Shown here: in pieces, positions 2,225-11,303 of the stretch
How positions within the stretch are numbered: position 1 is the stretch's first letter
Layout: every line of letters begins with the position of its first letter
Source: Escherichia phage vB_EcoM_NBG1
Sequence record: MH243438.1
Length of the DNA stretch: 64,000 bases
Reading direction: 5' to 3' (one strand)
Program-made: the position numbers and the translations under genes
The notes under the pieces: model-generated
What the model was told of the DNA's origin: nothing
Databases searched by the model: none
What the model saw: the letters and a program-made list of their open reading frames with translations, nothing else

Positions 2225-3793
2225 ATGACTACTATCAAAACTAAAGCTCAGCTCGTAGACAAATGGAAAGAACTGCTGGAAGGTGAAGGCCTGCCGGAAA
2301 TCGCTAATAGCAAGCAGGCTATTATCGCTAAAATCTTCGAAAACCAGGAAAAAGATTTCGAAGTATCCCCTGAATATAAAGACGAGAAAATCGCTCAGGC
2401 ATTTGGTTCTTTCTTGACCGAAGCTGAAATTGGTGGTGACCATGGTTATAATGCTCAGAACATCGCAGCGGGTCAAACCTCTGGTGCAGTAACCCAAATT
2501 GGGCCGGCAGTTATGGGTATGGTTCGTCGTGCTATTCCTAATCTGATCGCTTTTGATATTTGTGGTGTTCAGCCTATGAACAGCCCGACCGGTCAGGTAT
2601 TTGCTCTCCGTGCAGTATATGGTAAAGACCCTATCGCTGCTGGCGCTAAAGAAGCTTTCCATCCGATGTATGCTCCAGATGCGATGTTCTCTGGTCAGGG
2701 TGCTGCTAAGAAATTCCCAGCTCTGGCTGCTGACACTACTACTGTTGTAGGTGATATCTATACTCACTTCTTCCAAGAAACTGGTACTGTATATCTGCAA
2801 GCTTCTGCTGTCGTAACACTTGATTCTGGTGCAACTGATGCAGCTAAATTAGATGCAGAAGTTAAGAAACAAATGGAAGCTGGTGCACTGGTAGAAATCG
2901 CTGAAGGTATGGCTACTTCTATCGCTGAACTCCAGGAAGGTTTCAACGGTTCTACCGATAACCCATGGAATGAAATGGGCTTCCGTATCGATAAACAAGT
3001 TATTGAAGCTAAATCTCGCCAGCTGAAAGCTGCTTACTCTATCGAATTAGCACAAGACCTCCGTGCAGTACACGGTATGGATGCTGATGCTGAACTGAGC
3101 GGTATTCTTGCTACTGAAATTATGCTGGAAATCAACCGTGAAGTTGTTGATTGGATTAACTACTCGGCACAGGTTGGTAAATCTGGTATGACCCTGACTC
3201 CGGGTTCTAAAGCTGGTGTATTTGACTTCCAGGACCCGATTGATATCCGTGGTGCTCGTTGGGCCGGTGAAAGCTTTAAATCTCTGTTGTTCCAGATTGA
3301 TAAAGAAGCAGTTGAAATTGCTCGTCAAACCGGTCGTGGTGAAGGTAACTTCATTATCGCTTCCCGTAACGTAGTTAACGTACTGGCTTCAGTTGATACT
3401 GGTATTTCTTACGCTGCACAGGGTCTGGCTTCTGGTTTTAATACCGACACTACTAAGTCTGTATTTGCCGGTGTACTTGGTGGTAAATACCGCGTATACA
3501 TCGACCAGTATGCTAAACAGGATTACTTCACCGTTGGTTACAAAGGCGCTAACGAAATGGATGCAGGTATTTACTATGCTCCTTACGTTGCACTTACCCC
3601 ACTGCGTGGTTCTGATCCTAAGAACTTCCAGCCGGTAATGGGCTTTAAAACTCGTTACGGTATCGGTGTTAACCCGTTTGCTGAAAGTTCCCTGCAGGCT
3701 CCAGGTGCTCGCATCCAGTCCGGTATGCCGTCTATCCTGAACAGCCTTGGTAAGAACGCTTACTTCCGCCGTGTATATGTAAAAGGCATCTAA
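2225..3793 (+). CDS. 23: Major capsid protein gp23
   Basis: 522 aa; matches T4 gp23 in length and sequence character; strong codon bias; terminator hairpin downstream. Confidence 0.97.
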   Translation: MTTIKTKAQLVDKWKELLEGEGLPEIANSKQAIIAKIFENQEKDFEVSPEYKDEKIAQAFGSFLTEAEIGGDHGYNAQNIAAGQTSGAVTQIGPAVMGMVRRAIPNLIAFDICGVQPMNSPTGQVFALRAVYGKDPIAAGAKEAFHPMYAPDAMFSGQGAAKKFPALAADTTTVVGDIYTHFFQETGTVYLQASAVVTLDSGATDAAKLDAEVKKQMEAGALVEIAEGMATSIAELQEGFNGSTDNPWNEMGFRIDKQVIEAKSRQLKAAYSIELAQDLRAVHGMDADAELSGILATEIMLEINREVVDWINYSAQVGKSGMTLTPGSKAGVFDFQDPIDIRGARWAGESFKSLLFQIDKEAVEIARQTGRGEGNFIIASRNVVNVLASVDTGISYAAQGLASGFNTDTTKSVFAGVLGGKYRVYIDQYAKQDYFTVGYKGANEMDAGIYYAPYVALTPLRGSDPKNFQPVMGFKTRYGIGVNPFAESSLQAPGARIQSGMPSILNSLGKNAYFRRVYVKGI

Positions 3794-3817
3794 TCTTAAT
3801 TGATTAAATCTTATTTT

Positions 3818-3846
3818 GGGAGACTTCGGTCTCCCATTTTTGGTTT
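3818..3846 (+). terminator. Rho-independent terminator after gene 23
   Basis: Hairpin GGGAGAC-TTCG-GTCTCCC followed by a T-run. Confidence 0.8.
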
Positions 3847-4115
3847 TATTTCTGTGCAATTTCGATGTAAGTTTTCAAAATATTTTGCCAATTAGGCATA
3901 CCTTCTTGGACATATGCTGGAGAACCGTCTTTGTTTTTGAATGATGCAAGTTTATCAGTGGCCCAATAACCTTTAGCTCGAGCTTCAGAATCAACTTTCA
4001 TCCATACTTTGTTGAAGGCATTACCATTAACTTTTGCACCGTATTTTTCTACTAACTTAACTGCTTCAGCTTCCAGAACTTTTAAAGTATCTCGTAAGAA
4101 ACGTGCTTTAGTCAT
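3846..4115 (-). CDS. Hypothetical early protein in the slot occupied by segD in T4
   Basis: 89 aa ORF on - strand between genes 23 and 24, preceded by a T4-type early promoter at 4144-4176; no GIY-YIG or other motif recognised. Confidence 0.55.
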   Translation of the reverse strand: MTKARFLRDTLKVLEAEAVKLVEKYGAKVNGNAFNKVWMKVDSEARAKGYWATDKLASFKNKDGSPAYVQEGMPNWQNILKTYIEIAQK

Positions 4116-4143
4116 TTTGTTTACTCCTCTGTAGTTGATAAGT

Positions 4144-4176
4144 CTATAGTATCACATACCAAATACGTTGTAAACA
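4144..4176 (-). promoter_or_regulatory. T4-type early promoter
   Basis: On the - strand: GTTTAC -35, 17 nt spacer, extended -10 (tgtGATACTATAG); upstream of the 89 aa ORF. Confidence 0.6.
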
Positions 4177-4181
4177 ATCTT

Positions 4182-4189
4182 TATAAATA
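4182..4189 (+). promoter_or_regulatory. T4-type late promoter (TATAAATA) upstream of gene 24
   Basis: Exact TATAAATA 28 nt upstream of the gene 24 ATG. Confidence 0.7.
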
Positions 4190-4216
4190 ATCTATATCAC
4201 ATAAGGAAAAAATGCA

Positions 4217-5500
4217 ATGAGTAAAATCCAAAAATTATTGCGTGAATCTACAACGTCTACTAGCAACTCAATCGGTCGCCCAAATCTCGTTGCTTTGACT
4301 CGCGCTACGACTAAATTAATATATTCTGACATTGTAGCAACACAAAGAACTAATCAACCTGTTGCTGCTTTTTATGGTATCAAATATCTTAACCCAGACA
4401 ACGAATTAACATTTAAAACTGGTGCTACTTATGCAGGTGAAGCTGGATATGTAGACCGAGAAAAAATTACCGAACTCACAGAAGAATCAAAAGTCACATT
4501 AAATAAAGGCGATTTTTTCAAATATAATAATATCGTCTATAAAGTGTTAGAAGATACGCCATTTGCAGATATTCAAGAAAGTGATCTAGAATTAGCTCTT
4601 CAGATTGCAGTCGTTCATTTAAAGGTACGGTTATTTTCAGATGCAGCGGTAACAAGCAAATTTGAAAGCTCTGGTAGCGAAATTTCTGATGCAAGATTCC
4701 AGATTAATAAATGGCAAACTTCAGTCAAATCTCGTAAACTTAAAACCGGCCTCACGGTTGAATTAGCGCAAGATTTGGAAGCGAATGGATTTGATGCCCC
4801 TAACTTCTTAGAAGATTTGCTTGCTACTGAAATGGCTGATGAAATTAATAAAGATATTCTTCAGTCTTTAATTACTGTATCGAAACGTTATAAAGTTACT
4901 GGAATTACTGATACCGGATTTATTGACTTGAGCTATGCGTCTGCTCCAGAAGCAGGTCGTTCATTATACCGAATGGTATGCGAAATGGTTTCGCATATCC
5001 AAAAAGAGTCAACTTATACTGCAACGTTTTGCGTAGCCTCAGCTCGTGCAGCTGCTATTCTTGCTGCTTCTGGTTGGTTAAAACATAAGCCAGAAGATGA
5101 CAAGTATCTTTCACAAAATGCTTATGGATTCTTGGCAAATGGATTACCTCTTTACTGCGATACCAACAGTCCGTTAGATTATGTTATTGTGGGTGTTGTA
5201 GAAAATATCGGCGAAAAAGAAATTGTAGGGTCCATCTTTTATGCTCCATACACTGAAGGAGTAGATTTAGATGACCCGGAACATGTTGGTGCATTTAAAG
5301 TTGTAGTTGATCCAGAAAGCTTGCAACCGTCTATCGGATTATTGGTTAGATATGCTTTATCAGCAAATCCTTACACAGTAGCAAAAGACGAAAAAGAAGC
5401 GAGAGTAATTGATGGCGGGGACATGGATAAAATGGCAGGACGTTCAGACTTGTCTGTTTTACTCGGTGTTAAATTGCCTAAAATTATTATAGATGAATAA
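4217..5500 (+). CDS. 24: Capsid vertex protein gp24
   Basis: 427 aa, same length as T4 gp24; TATAAATA at 4182-4189 upstream. Confidence 0.95.
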   Translation: MSKIQKLLRESTTSTSNSIGRPNLVALTRATTKLIYSDIVATQRTNQPVAAFYGIKYLNPDNELTFKTGATYAGEAGYVDREKITELTEESKVTLNKGDFFKYNNIVYKVLEDTPFADIQESDLELALQIAVVHLKVRLFSDAAVTSKFESSGSEISDARFQINKWQTSVKSRKLKTGLTVELAQDLEANGFDAPNFLEDLLATEMADEINKDILQSLITVSKRYKVTGITDTGFIDLSYASAPEAGRSLYRMVCEMVSHIQKESTYTATFCVASARAAAILAASGWLKHKPEDDKYLSQNAYGFLANGLPLYCDTNSPLDYVIVGVVENIGEKEIVGSIFYAPYTEGVDLDDPEHVGAFKVVVDPESLQPSIGLLVRYALSANPYTVAKDEKEARVIDGGDMDKMAGRSDLSVLLGVKLPKIIIDE

Positions 5501-8333: not shown

Positions 8334-9002
8334 TTATTTTAATGTTACGAAAGAAGAATTACGAGTTTCACGAATTAGAACTGATCCATCGCGATTAATA
8401 TAATAAATTAAGCTAAATAATGTTTGGTGAGCAGAAGCGTGCACAAAACTGGTTGGGCGAGATTTCCAATCTGGGGTTTCGGCTATCCATTGATAAATCC
8501 ACCAAGGAACAGTAACATATCCTGGGCCTTTGCCTAATTTAATGAGTGTAGGACTAAAATTTTCAGGCAGAACAAATTTTACTTCTTTATTTACCTCTGG
8601 CTCAGGTTCTTTTTCAGATTCAACAACCTGAGTAATTGCTTCTTCGAATTTATCATGGTCGAATTCTTTTTCTTGTTCGACAACTTCTAATACTTCAGCT
8701 TGTTCTGTTGGAGAATCAAACAACAGAATAGCTTCTTCTTTAACTTCTTCGTTGGTGAAATTAACACCGTCCACATCATCTGCGGCAGTAATTAAATCGG
8801 TGATAGATAATCCATCAGTTTCAGGTAATGGTTCATCAGCCAGTGCGTTAAGAGCTTCTTCGATATCAATAACAATATTATCGAATGATTTTGTTTTCTT
8901 AACACTAATGCCAAATTGTTCCGCATATTCAAACAGTTTAGCTTTGGCTTCCTTTTTATCAGAAAGAGCACGTAACTCTTCAATATAGTCTTTATCGATC
9001 AT
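8334..9002 (-). CDS. inh: Inhibitor of prohead protease Inh
   Basis: 222 aa acidic protein next to hoc; size and position match T4 Inh. Confidence 0.8.
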   Translation of the reverse strand: MIDKDYIEELRALSDKKEAKAKLFEYAEQFGISVKKTKSFDNIVIDIEEALNALADEPLPETDGLSITDLITAADDVDGVNFTNEEVKEEAILLFDSPTEQAEVLEVVEQEKEFDHDKFEEAITQVVESEKEPEPEVNKEVKFVLPENFSPTLIKLGKGPGYVTVPWWIYQWIAETPDWKSRPTSFVHASAHQTLFSLIYYINRDGSVLIRETRNSSFVTLK

Positions 9003-9015
9003 GATATTTCCTCAT

Positions 9016-9023
9016 TATAAATA
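9016..9023 (+). promoter_or_regulatory. T4-type late promoter (TATAAATA) upstream of segE/uvsW
   Basis: Exact TATAAATA in the inh-segE intergenic region. Confidence 0.5.
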
Positions 9024-9051
9024 TAACTATATTTATTACATGGAAAAGAGT

Positions 9052-9783
9052 ATGTATCACTTTGTTTATGAGACCGTAAATTTAATCAATGGTAAAAAGT
9101 ACATTGGCAAACATTCTACAGAAAATTTAAATGATTCGTATCTAGGGTCAGGTGTTGCCTTAAATCGCGCTATCAAAAAATACGGAGAAGAATCATTTAA
9201 ACGTTCAATAATTAAACAATTTGAAACTTCCGCTGAAGCTTTAGAATACGAAGCTCAGTTAGTAACAGAGGATTTGGTCAAATCTAACGAGTATTATAAT
9301 ATGCGCCAAGGCGGTGAAGGTGGAAGGTATAAGTACACCGAAGCTGATAAGACTAAAATGTCTAATAGTGCTAAAGAACGAATAAAGAGGCTTGGTCATA
9401 ATCTTTTAGGAAAACACAGATCGGAAGAAACAAAAAGAAAACTATCTGAAACAAATAAACGTCGATACTCTGAAGACCCAACATGCCACGGGCGGTATGG
9501 TACAGGAAAGCCAAAGATTGATAAAATTAAAGGTCCTAAAAATCCTACAACTCTAAATAAAATTTGTGTTAACAACGGTAAAGAAAACAGATTTATATCA
9601 GCTGAGGACCCGATGCCTGAAGGATTTGTAAAAGGAATGGTCCAACTTAATAGAAAATCTAGAAAGGGCTGTGAAGTAAAACCTACGACCACCGGCAGAA
9701 TATGGGTAAATAACGGGGCTATAAATAAATTAGTAAATCCGTTATCCATCCCAGATGGATATGTTAAAGGCCGTTTAAGGTAA
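9052..9783 (+). CDS. segE: GIY-YIG homing endonuclease, SegE-like
   Basis: N-terminal MYHFVYETVNLINGKKYIGKH is a GIY-YIG motif; located between inh and uvsW as segE is in T4. Start set at ATG 9052 (purine-rich SD); the ORF is open from 9001, alternative ATG at 9040. Confidence 0.85.
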   Translation: MYHFVYETVNLINGKKYIGKHSTENLNDSYLGSGVALNRAIKKYGEESFKRSIIKQFETSAEALEYEAQLVTEDLVKSNEYYNMRQGGEGGRYKYTEADKTKMSNSAKERIKRLGHNLLGKHRSEETKRKLSETNKRRYSEDPTCHGRYGTGKPKIDKIKGPKNPTTLNKICVNNGKENRFISAEDPMPEGFVKGMVQLNRKSRKGCEVKPTTTGRIWVNNGAINKLVNPLSIPDGYVKGRLR

Positions 9784-9788
9784 TTATT

Positions 9789-11303
9789 ATGACAGATATT
9801 AAAGTACATTTTCATGATTTTAGCCATGTAAGAATTGAATGCGACGAAAGCGTGTTCTATGAATTACGCGACTTTTTTAGCTTTGAAGCCGATGGGTACA
9901 AATTCAACCCGCGTTACAAATATGGGAACTGGGATGGTAGAATTAGACTTTTAGATTACAACCGTTTGTTACCATATGGACTTGTAGGACAAATAAAAAA
10001 GTTCTGTAGCAATATGAGTTATTCTGTATGGATTGACCCTAAAATCTTTGAGACCGAAGACCTTACCAGGGAAGATTTTGACGCATGGCTTTCTAAACAA
10101 GAAATTTATTCAGGCAACGCCAAAATCGAACCACATTGGTATCAAAAAGATGCAGTATATGAAGGACTAGTTAATCGTCGTCGAATTTTAAACCTTCCGA
10201 CATCAGCAGGTAAATCACTAATCCAAGCACTTTTAGCTCGGTATTATCTAGAGAACTATGAAGGTAAAATTCTCATTATCGTCCCTACAACAGCATTGAC
10301 AACCCAGATGGCTAATGATTTTGTTGATTATCGCTTGTTTAGTCATTCGATGATTAAGAAAATTGGCGGTGGTGCTGATAAAGCAGACAAATCTAAAAAC
10401 GACGCTCCAATTATTGTTGGCACATGGCAAACGGTAGTTAAGCAGCCTAAAGAATGGTTCTCTCAGTTCGGTATGATGATGAACGATGAATGCCACTTAG
10501 CAACAGGCAAAAGTATTTCTTCAATCATCGCAGGATTAAATAATTGTATGTTTAAATTCGGTTTATCTGGCTCATTAAGAGACGGAAAGGCCAATGTAAT
10601 GCAGTACGTAGGTATGTTCGGCGAAATCTTCCGTCCTGTTAGCACGTCTAAATTAATGGAAGATGGACAGGTAACTGAGCTTAAGATTAATAGTATTTTC
10701 CTTCGTTATCCAGACGAATTCGCCACCAAATTAAAAGGTAAAACATACCAAGAAGAAGTTAAAATTATTACCGGACTAAAACGACGTACAAAGTGGATTG
10801 CTCAACTTTCAGTCAAATTGGCTAAGAAAGACGAGAACGCCTTTGTAATGTTTAAACACGTTACACACGGTAAAGAAATATTTGAAGCTATTAAAGAGCT
10901 TGGATACGAAAAAGTTTATTACGTATCAGGCGAAGTTGATACTGAAACACGTAACGCGCTTAAAGTCATGGCAGAAAATGGTAAAGGCATTATTATTGTC
11001 GCATCATATGGAGTATTCTCTACCGGTATTTCAGTCAAGAATCTTCATCATGTTATTTTTGCCCATGGTGTTAAATCAAAAATTATCGTACTTCAAACAG
11101 TAGGTCGTGTGCTTCGTAAGCATGGTTCTAAAGCTGTTGCTACAGTTTGGGATCTCATCGATGACGCAGGTGTAAAACCTAAATCATTAAATACTAAAAA
11201 GAAGTATACTCATCTTAATTACTTGTTAAAACACGGTATTGATCGTATCCAACGTTACGCTGATGAGAAATTTAACTATGTAATGAAAACAATTAATTTA
11301 TAA
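9789..11303 (+). CDS. uvsW: UvsW RNA-DNA and DNA-DNA helicase
   Basis: 504 aa; MTDIKVHFHDFSHVRIECDE... and SF2 helicase motifs (LPTSAGKS Walker A, DECH box) match remembered T4 UvsW. Confidence 0.95.
   Translation: MTDIKVHFHDFSHVRIECDESVFYELRDFFSFEADGYKFNPRYKYGNWDGRIRLLDYNRLLPYGLVGQIKKFCSNMSYSVWIDPKIFETEDLTREDFDAWLSKQEIYSGNAKIEPHWYQKDAVYEGLVNRRRILNLPTSAGKSLIQALLARYYLENYEGKILIIVPTTALTTQMANDFVDYRLFSHSMIKKIGGGADKADKSKNDAPIIVGTWQTVVKQPKEWFSQFGMMMNDECHLATGKSISSIIAGLNNCMFKFGLSGSLRDGKANVMQYVGMFGEIFRPVSTSKLMEDGQVTELKINSIFLRYPDEFATKLKGKTYQEEVKIITGLKRRTKWIAQLSVKLAKKDENAFVMFKHVTHGKEIFEAIKELGYEKVYYVSGEVDTETRNALKVMAENGKGIIIVASYGVFSTGISVKNLHHVIFAHGVKSKIIVLQTVGRVLRKHGSKAVATVWDLIDDAGVKPKSLNTKKKYTHLNYLLKHGIDRIQRYADEKFNYVMKTINL

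Follow-up and report, generated by a model that had tools for sequence, protein, structure and literature searches.

The window analyzed here is a stretch of 64,000 nucleotides from Escherichia phage vB_EcoM_NBG1 (MH243438.1), which, judged by its sequence, is an RB69-like T4-type phage of the genus Mosigvirus. The genes for the major capsid protein and the capsid vertex protein, genes 23 and 24, are separated in the window by a spacer of 423 bp. The 601 bases around the locus of interest share 99.7% DNA identity with Escherichia phage PhAPEC2 and with more than 100 other records. A preliminary description placed in this spacer a minus-strand ORF of 89 amino acids, between the terminator of gene 23 and the late promoter of gene 24. 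Every element that it described is present, and the ORF is antisense to the late head operon as claimed, since it lies on the minus strand (3846-4115) and genes 23 and 24 on the plus strand. The features are as follows.

2225-3793, plus strand: gene 23 (major capsid protein), an ORF of 522 amino acids, annotated as the major head protein in PhAPEC2
3817-3847, plus strand: intrinsic terminator of gene 23, from the terminator scan, with an 8-bp GC-rich stem, a UUCG loop and then a T-run
3817-3836, then TTTTTGGTTTT, plus strand: the terminator hairpin proper, from the scan and the RNA fold
3846-4115, minus strand: the 89-amino-acid ORF, with an ATG start and a TAA stop, the stop codon 9 nt from the base of the hairpin
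4124-4129, minus strand: Shine-Dalgarno sequence GAGGAG, 8 nt 5' of the ATG of the ORF, from reading of the sequence
4146-4175, minus strand: sigma-70 promoter of the T4 early type, from the promoter scan and reading of the sequence
4182-4189, plus strand: late promoter of gene 24, TATAAATA, back-to-back with the early promoter, at 6 bp from the -35 element
4217-5500, plus strand: gene 24 (capsid vertex protein), an ORF of 427 amino acids, from the PhAPEC2 annotation

The terminator of gene 23 is an annotated feature in the records of PhAPEC2 and SA79RD. In RNA folding, its hairpin has an energy of -14.4 kcal/mol (z -4.3) in the plus-strand RNA and of -13.5 kcal/mol (z -4.8) in the minus-strand RNA, where it is positioned straight after the stop codon of the ORF. 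A U-tract following the hairpin was looked for in the minus-strand RNA and was absent.

The ORF encodes a member of a protein family that databases already hold. Over its full length (residues 1-89 on positions 1-90 of the 90-position profile) the protein matches phrog_6003, also written PHROG 6003, with an E-value of 2e-45 (2.1e-45), and the PhAPEC2 record labels the ORF "similar to RB69ORF188c." The family comprises hypothetical proteins from T4-type phages of the RB69-like, JS98-like and VR-like groups. The gene in the window has the slot, strand and length of RB69ORF188c, with no substantive difference. Proteins that are 99-100% identical are annotated in more than 100 Mosigvirus records. 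A tblastn search recovered the ORF in 239 phage records, about 120 of them at 95% identity or more and 119 at 30-38%. Full-length syntenic homologues are found in several genera. In Gaprivervirus VR20, Dhakavirus WG01 and phage 04086, divergent copies are placed and oriented in the same way, and proteins of 61-71% identity are encoded with the same gp23-gp24 synteny on metagenomic T4-like contigs. Taken across Mosigvirus, Dhakavirus, Gaprivervirus and the metagenomic T4-like phages, identity among the homologues in this slot is about 30-70%.

The preliminary description had named an ORF with no conservation and poor coding potential, that is, a non-coding spacer, as the finding that would speak against a gene. 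This is contradicted by the syntenic homologues and by dN/dS ratios of 0.06-0.14 in all pairs with unsaturated dS (Nei-Gojobori). The predicted pI is also held at 9.3-9.7 in all nine homologues examined, despite identities of about 30%. By the measure of these comparisons, the ORF is a genuine protein-coding gene under purifying selection. It is not a new gene, because databases already list it as a hypothetical protein (RB69ORF188c/phrog_6003), and its promoter and terminators are annotated in at least one record; the impact on annotation is therefore small. No paper mentioning RB69ORF188c was found in the literature. In phage mogra (MN850579; positions 601-869 of the excerpt L018) a one-base frameshift splits the ORF into two annotated ORFs of 38 and 51 amino acids, which suggests that the ORF is dispensable in the laboratory, unless the frameshift is a sequencing error.

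The family is restricted in number and in host genome. Out of 5.8 billion proteins, a profile search recovered 25 family clusters; a second search, over 1.8 billion, recovered 7 representatives. On these counts RB69ORF188c/phrog_6003 is a very small family found only in phages. Within T4-like phages the family always sits in the slot between genes 23 and 24, whereas in unrelated virulent phages its neighbors are other small genes. Three carriers are not of the T4 type, namely Acinetobacter phage ABPH49, a contig of 75 kb in which small unknown ORFs, in long runs on one strand, surround the family member, and a siphovirus-like contig in which it comes just past the tail genes. The family members outside T4-like phages are located as follows.

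L012 (ABPH49), 3995-4261: family member
L014, 5001-5264: family member
L015, 5001-5255: family member

The occurrence of the ORF in unrelated phages indicates that it acts as a mobile accessory gene.

The preliminary description also assigned an early promoter to the ORF. Read on the minus strand, the parts of this promoter are a -35 element GTTTACA (4175 to 4169), a 17-nt spacer ending in TGA, and an extended -10 element TACTAT (4151 to 4146). The arrangement GTTTACA-N17(..TGA)-TACTAT matches the pattern of a T4-type early unit, which has a GTTTAC-type -35 element, a 17-nt spacer, a TAnnnT -10 element and an upstream TG. The consensus promoter scan found 2 sites, where 2.3 were expected in shuffled AT-rich DNA, which is chance level. 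Since the scan finds no more sites than shuffled DNA, it is conservation that supports the promoter call. Seven sequences, among them those of Gaprivervirus, Dhakavirus, metagenomic relatives, T4 and T2, were aligned over the upstream block. The -35 element, the extended -10 element, the Shine-Dalgarno sequence and the late promoter keep their register in four divergent lineages, and all seven sequences, that of the empty T2 slot among them, have an identical late promoter TATAAATA. The depositors of SA79RD independently annotated a promoter "similar to phage T4 early promoter," the late promoter and the terminators at these positions. An early-type promoter is thus present with its register kept across lineages, and in view of this conservation it is a credible early promoter for the ORF.

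The ORF is probably expressed early, because segD of phage T4 sits behind a homologous promoter and is classed as early RNA. A transcriptome of an RB69-type phage was sought in the literature and none was found. By the example of T4 segD, the 89-amino-acid gene would be transcribed right after infection by the unmodified host RNA polymerase. The early promoter would presumably be silenced later, once the back-to-back late promoter 6 bp away serves gene 24.

Transcription from this promoter opposes the late operon, and the main role of the locus could be at the level of RNA, with an early antisense transcript running through the hairpin into gene 23 and damping premature or leaky expression of the head gene, the peptide being secondary. 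Read-through into gene 23 is plausible because the minus-strand hairpin has no U-tract, and the promoter is kept even in T4, where the ORF is absent. However, constraint on the amino acid sequence is clear from the dN/dS values (0.06-0.14), the invariant residues and the conserved pI, whereas T2, Jiaodavirus and Kanagawavirus do without any promoter here. No Rfam family came near any threshold in the spacer. A main function at the RNA level is very unlikely, because the protein sequence is constrained and many relatives have no promoter at this place. An antisense RNA effect may exist as an additional function.

The slot is the one that holds the free-standing homing endonuclease gene segD in T4, as the preliminary description had stated, and segD lies there on the same strand as the ORF. 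The likeness extends to the antisense orientation, to the 3' end that abuts the terminator of gene 23, and to a homologous block of promoter, Shine-Dalgarno sequence and late promoter. The products, in contrast, are unrelated. SegD is a protein of 223 amino acids with GIY-YIG and HTH domains, whereas the ORF in the window encodes 89 amino acids without a nuclease motif. A BLASTP comparison of the ORF with T4 SegD gave only a chance match over 17 residues (6 of 17 identical, E 0.022 in a single comparison). In Pfam scans no family reached the threshold for the ORF, and neither the ORF nor its homologues matched GIY-YIG, SegE_GIY-YIG, or any nuclease, HNH, helix-turn-helix or DNA-binding domain, whereas the GIY-YIG domain was detected in T4 SegD and in its orthologue from phage KAW3E185. 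The ORF is thus unrelated to segD, in agreement with the preliminary description.

Comparison of the region between genes 23 and 24 across T4-like genomes reveals four states of the slot. The first is empty, with a spacer of about 83 bp that holds only the terminator and the late promoter; it is found in T2 and most Tequatrovirus records, and the slot is also empty in Jiaodavirus KpV477 and Kanagawavirus ZX14. The second state, with the ORF alone, is that of the window and of about 170 records in total (about 120 Mosigvirus and about 50 Dhakavirus or Gaprivervirus). In the third, which comprises 38 records including IME08, 04086, KAW3E185, JK45, F2 and the LF82 phages, the ORF is accompanied by an endonuclease gene. 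Its product, a SegD orthologue, shows 58% full-length identity to T4 SegD. The segD gene in this state is inserted exactly between the stop codon of the ORF and the terminator hairpin, 3 nt past the stop and on the same strand. The fourth state, segD alone, is found in T4 and 52 other records (53 of the matches to the T4 region).

These states bear directly on the origin of the ORF, which the preliminary description had proposed as a possible remnant or replacement left by turnover of homing endonucleases. Turnover at the slot is evident from the four states and from the cassettes swapped into Mosigvirus phages that are described below; it is the role given to the ORF that is not supported. 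The ORF could be read as the decayed remnant of segD, or of another homing endonuclease once in the slot, given that the slot is the segD site in T4, that segD comes and goes among relatives, and that the ORF shares with segD its strand and its end-point at the terminator. However, purifying selection is strong across the full length of the ORF, the predicted fold is compact and unlike nuclease domains, and there is no similarity to SegD past the 17-residue chance match and no match to GIY-YIG, HNH or helix-turn-helix families. An intact segD orthologue lies directly downstream of the ORF in 38 records, while some 170 phages have the ORF without segD. The ORF is not a segD remnant, because the two coexist. 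Decay from an endonuclease is so improbable, given the BLASTP comparison, the Pfam scans, the selection on the ORF and its coexistence with segD, that it is effectively excluded.

To judge by the distribution of the two genes, the slot has the ORF cassette as its resident, with segD as an optional passenger. The direction of turnover, read from the same arrangements, is the reverse of that first proposed, in that segD is an addition to the ORF cassette. The window therefore shows the "ORF alone" state, which is free of segD.

Exchange of the cassette is documented within Mosigvirus. Two phages assigned to this genus, KAW3E185 and LF82-7, match the window at 99-100% identity throughout genes 23 and 24. 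Their slot, however, holds a Dhakavirus-type allele of the ORF (81-97% identical to that of WG01 and about 60% to that of the window) together with segD. The swapped tracts are as follows.

L010 (KAW3E185), 3414-4516: swapped tract, corresponding to window 4200 to about 3766
L011 (LF82-7), 3495-4515: swapped tract, corresponding to window 4121 to about 3766

Both phages share a right junction, which lies within gene 23 about 28 nt short of its 3' end, but the left junction differs, at window 4210-4200 in KAW3E185 and at 4130-4121 in LF82-7. The left junction of LF82-7 therefore leaves a window-type promoter in front of a Dhaka-type ORF and segD. The tract of ORF and segD was thus exchanged as a unit, and the exchange happened, or was reworked, more than once. 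The window-type allele was, among the rows sampled, always recovered as one uninterrupted match, that is, without segD.

Joint transfer of this kind is expected if the ORF is the cargo or helper of a mobile element centered on segD, in which case the cassette in the window would have lost its segD. In KAW3E185 and LF82-7 the backbone is window-like and the Dhaka-type ORF and segD entered it together, as a single tract of about 1.1 kb, the two genes lie 3 nt apart on one strand behind one promoter, and segD accompanies only the Dhaka-type allele and never the window-type allele in the sampled records. However, about 120 records with the window-type ORF and about 50 with the Dhaka-type ORF are without segD, segD stands alone in T4 and 52 other records, and the family occurs in unrelated phages with no endonuclease adjoining it. 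An obligatory role as cargo or helper is unlikely, since both genes are often present singly. Moreover, co-conversion of a flanking marker would yield joint transfer anyway. The joint transfer of ORF and segD would fit such co-conversion during homing, and would equally fit ordinary recombination in the flanks. SegD is reportedly the subject of a paper by Sokolov et al. from 2018.

The 3' end of gene 23 in KAW3E185 and LF82-7 carries a cluster of synonymous changes. Immunity of a segD target site in gene 23 was considered and rejected. There is no segD-linked polymorphism at this place, because the pairs T4/T2 and 04086/WG01 are each identical over the last 75 nt. The synonymous cluster, to judge by these pairs, just reflects a different donor lineage.

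The region next to the slot also varies in the copy number of gene 24. Gene 24 is present in one copy in the window, as in T4, and as two tandem paralogues in Gaprivervirus (L002, 330-2894), in Dhakavirus (L003, 336-2899) and in a metagenomic contig (L006, 2337-4901). The metagenomic contig combines the two-copy arrangement of gene 24 with a window-type allele of the ORF (62% identical), which suggests exchange of the cassette there as well.

The upstream block of the ORF is also found in T4, where the ORF is not. The 90-bp region between segD and gene 24 of T4 aligns end to end with the block upstream of the ORF, and the two are of equal length. The T4 block is 61-66% identical to the blocks of the ORF carriers, which is the range among the carriers themselves. 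The promoter in it, TTTACA-N17-TGaTATTAT, agrees with the consensus at 10 of 12 positions and is located as follows.

L005 (T4, NC_000866 excerpt), 4254-4282, minus strand: early-type promoter, the counterpart of window 4146-4175

T4 segD thus follows a block homologous to the one that carries the ORF's promoter, with the body of the ORF missing; T2 is without the block. The simplest reading of this alignment is that the cassette's promoter drives segD in T4, where the ORF itself is absent. A review from 2010 (PMC2988022) stated that a segD-specific promoter could not be found and that segD transcripts probably occur at a vanishingly low level. In the supplements of a T4 omics study from 2022 (PMC9697503), segD is classed as "early RNA, middle protein" and peptide intensities are listed for its product. 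A plausible early promoter for T4 segD agrees with these omics data, that is, with early segD RNA and detectable SegD protein.

The best explanation overall, with a probability of about 80%, is that the spacer holds a resident early accessory-gene cassette on which segD is an optional passenger. The cassette in the window would be a self-contained unit, antisense and nested in the late gene 23-24 spacer of an RB69-like phage, consisting of its own sigma-70 early-type promoter, a strong ribosome-binding site, a gene of 89 codons and a shared end hairpin. On this explanation the spacer between genes 23 and 24 is a four-state site for exchangeable cassettes, and segD would be a rider on the transcription unit of a small early gene that predates it. 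The additions to what the databases hold are the description of the four-state slot, the homologous early-type promoter at T4 segD, and a confident model of an orphan fold.

Such a cassette resembles the morons and the accessory ORFs of hyperplastic regions in T4-related genomes. Like them, it consists of a small gene under its own promoter that interrupts a conserved late operon between two genes, is present or absent among close relatives, is shared with unrelated phages, and is apparently dispensable. The features of a moron that were observed here are the promoter of its own, the insertion between genes 23 and 24, and the presence/absence polymorphism, with an empty slot in T2, Jiaodavirus and Kanagawavirus; the terminator is less clear, because the minus-strand hairpin has no U-tract. 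Classical morons, however, are by definition genes of temperate phages, expressed in the prophage state, whereas this cassette is in a virulent phage and has an early lytic promoter. The terminator also differs from that of a moron, in that the cassette shares the hairpin of its neighbor, which has no U-tract on the minus strand.

The product is a basic protein, with 13 lysines and 3 arginines versus 10 aspartates and glutamates, a pI of 9.6 and a net charge of +6. An AlphaFold model built with 19 sequences has a pLDDT of 94.2 and a pTM of 0.80. In the model, residues 3-25 and 31-48 form helices, residues 52-60 and 66-70 form a beta hairpin, and residues 76-88 form a third helix. A search of PDB folds with the model returned no significant match and no informative structural neighbor. 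Residues M1, K3, F6, G31, N32, N35 and Q70 are invariant in the family and N30 and L14 nearly so, giving an invariant N-G-N..N loop and an invariant Gln70. The family alignment contains no invariant Asp, Glu, His, Cys or Ser, and a catalytic role is therefore unlikely.

Profile searches gave no assignment for the product. The only Pfam hit was DUF4859, below threshold at 17.9 bits versus a cut-off of 22.6 bits and matched by 2 of 19 family members, and searches of NCBIfam, PADLOC and PDB sequence profiles returned nothing significant for the ORF. A relation to cytochrome b5-like proteins was also considered. Residues 40-70 are matched by P0013, a metagenomic protein of 655 amino acids with six repeats, and residues 51-69 of the ORF (window 3906-3965, WATDKLASFKNKDGSPAYV) resemble the first 20 or so residues of its Cyt-b5-like repeats. 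However, PF00173 (cytochrome b5-like heme/steroid-binding, about 74 residues) matches no member of the family, and the 19-residue motif does not cover the domain and is not kept in the Dhaka-type allele. The match was rejected as chance.

The annotation of PhAPEC2 marks virion proteins as structural, and the ORF is not among them. It is possible, as a tentative suggestion, that the product is an early, soluble basic protein of two helices, a beta hairpin and a third helix that binds nucleic acid or protein of the host or phage, and that it serves a non-essential function in host takeover or counter-defence and not as an enzyme. A bolder and more doubtful proposal is that the protein is an early effector of new fold acting on a host target (nucleic acid, a nucleoid or RNA-processing factor, or a defence protein), on a cassette of promoter and gene that moves between unrelated virulent phages. 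The same cassette would then be the landing pad that gives segD its sole promoter, making SegD the only homing endonuclease of T4 with an early promoter. As it stands, the protein is one of many conserved, phage-only early proteins with orphan folds, and its importance would depend on the discovery of a host target or a counter-defence role.

Two minor observations concern Seg proteins. The alignment of the KAW3E185 SegD orthologue with the annotated T4 SegD begins at Met4 of the latter, after which both proteins read M-(K/N)-Y-L-I-Y. The start in the T4 record is located as follows.

L005 (T4), 4222-4233: annotated start of segD, MFKM...

The alignment suggests that the annotated start of T4 SegD is three codons too far upstream. 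Elsewhere in the window, an ORF of 260 amino acids on the plus strand (9001-9783), flanked by inh (8334-9002, minus strand) and uvsW (9789-11303), encodes a Seg-like GIY-YIG endonuclease whose N-terminal part is 39-46% identical to SegD proteins. Its location between inh and uvsW is the position of segE in T4.
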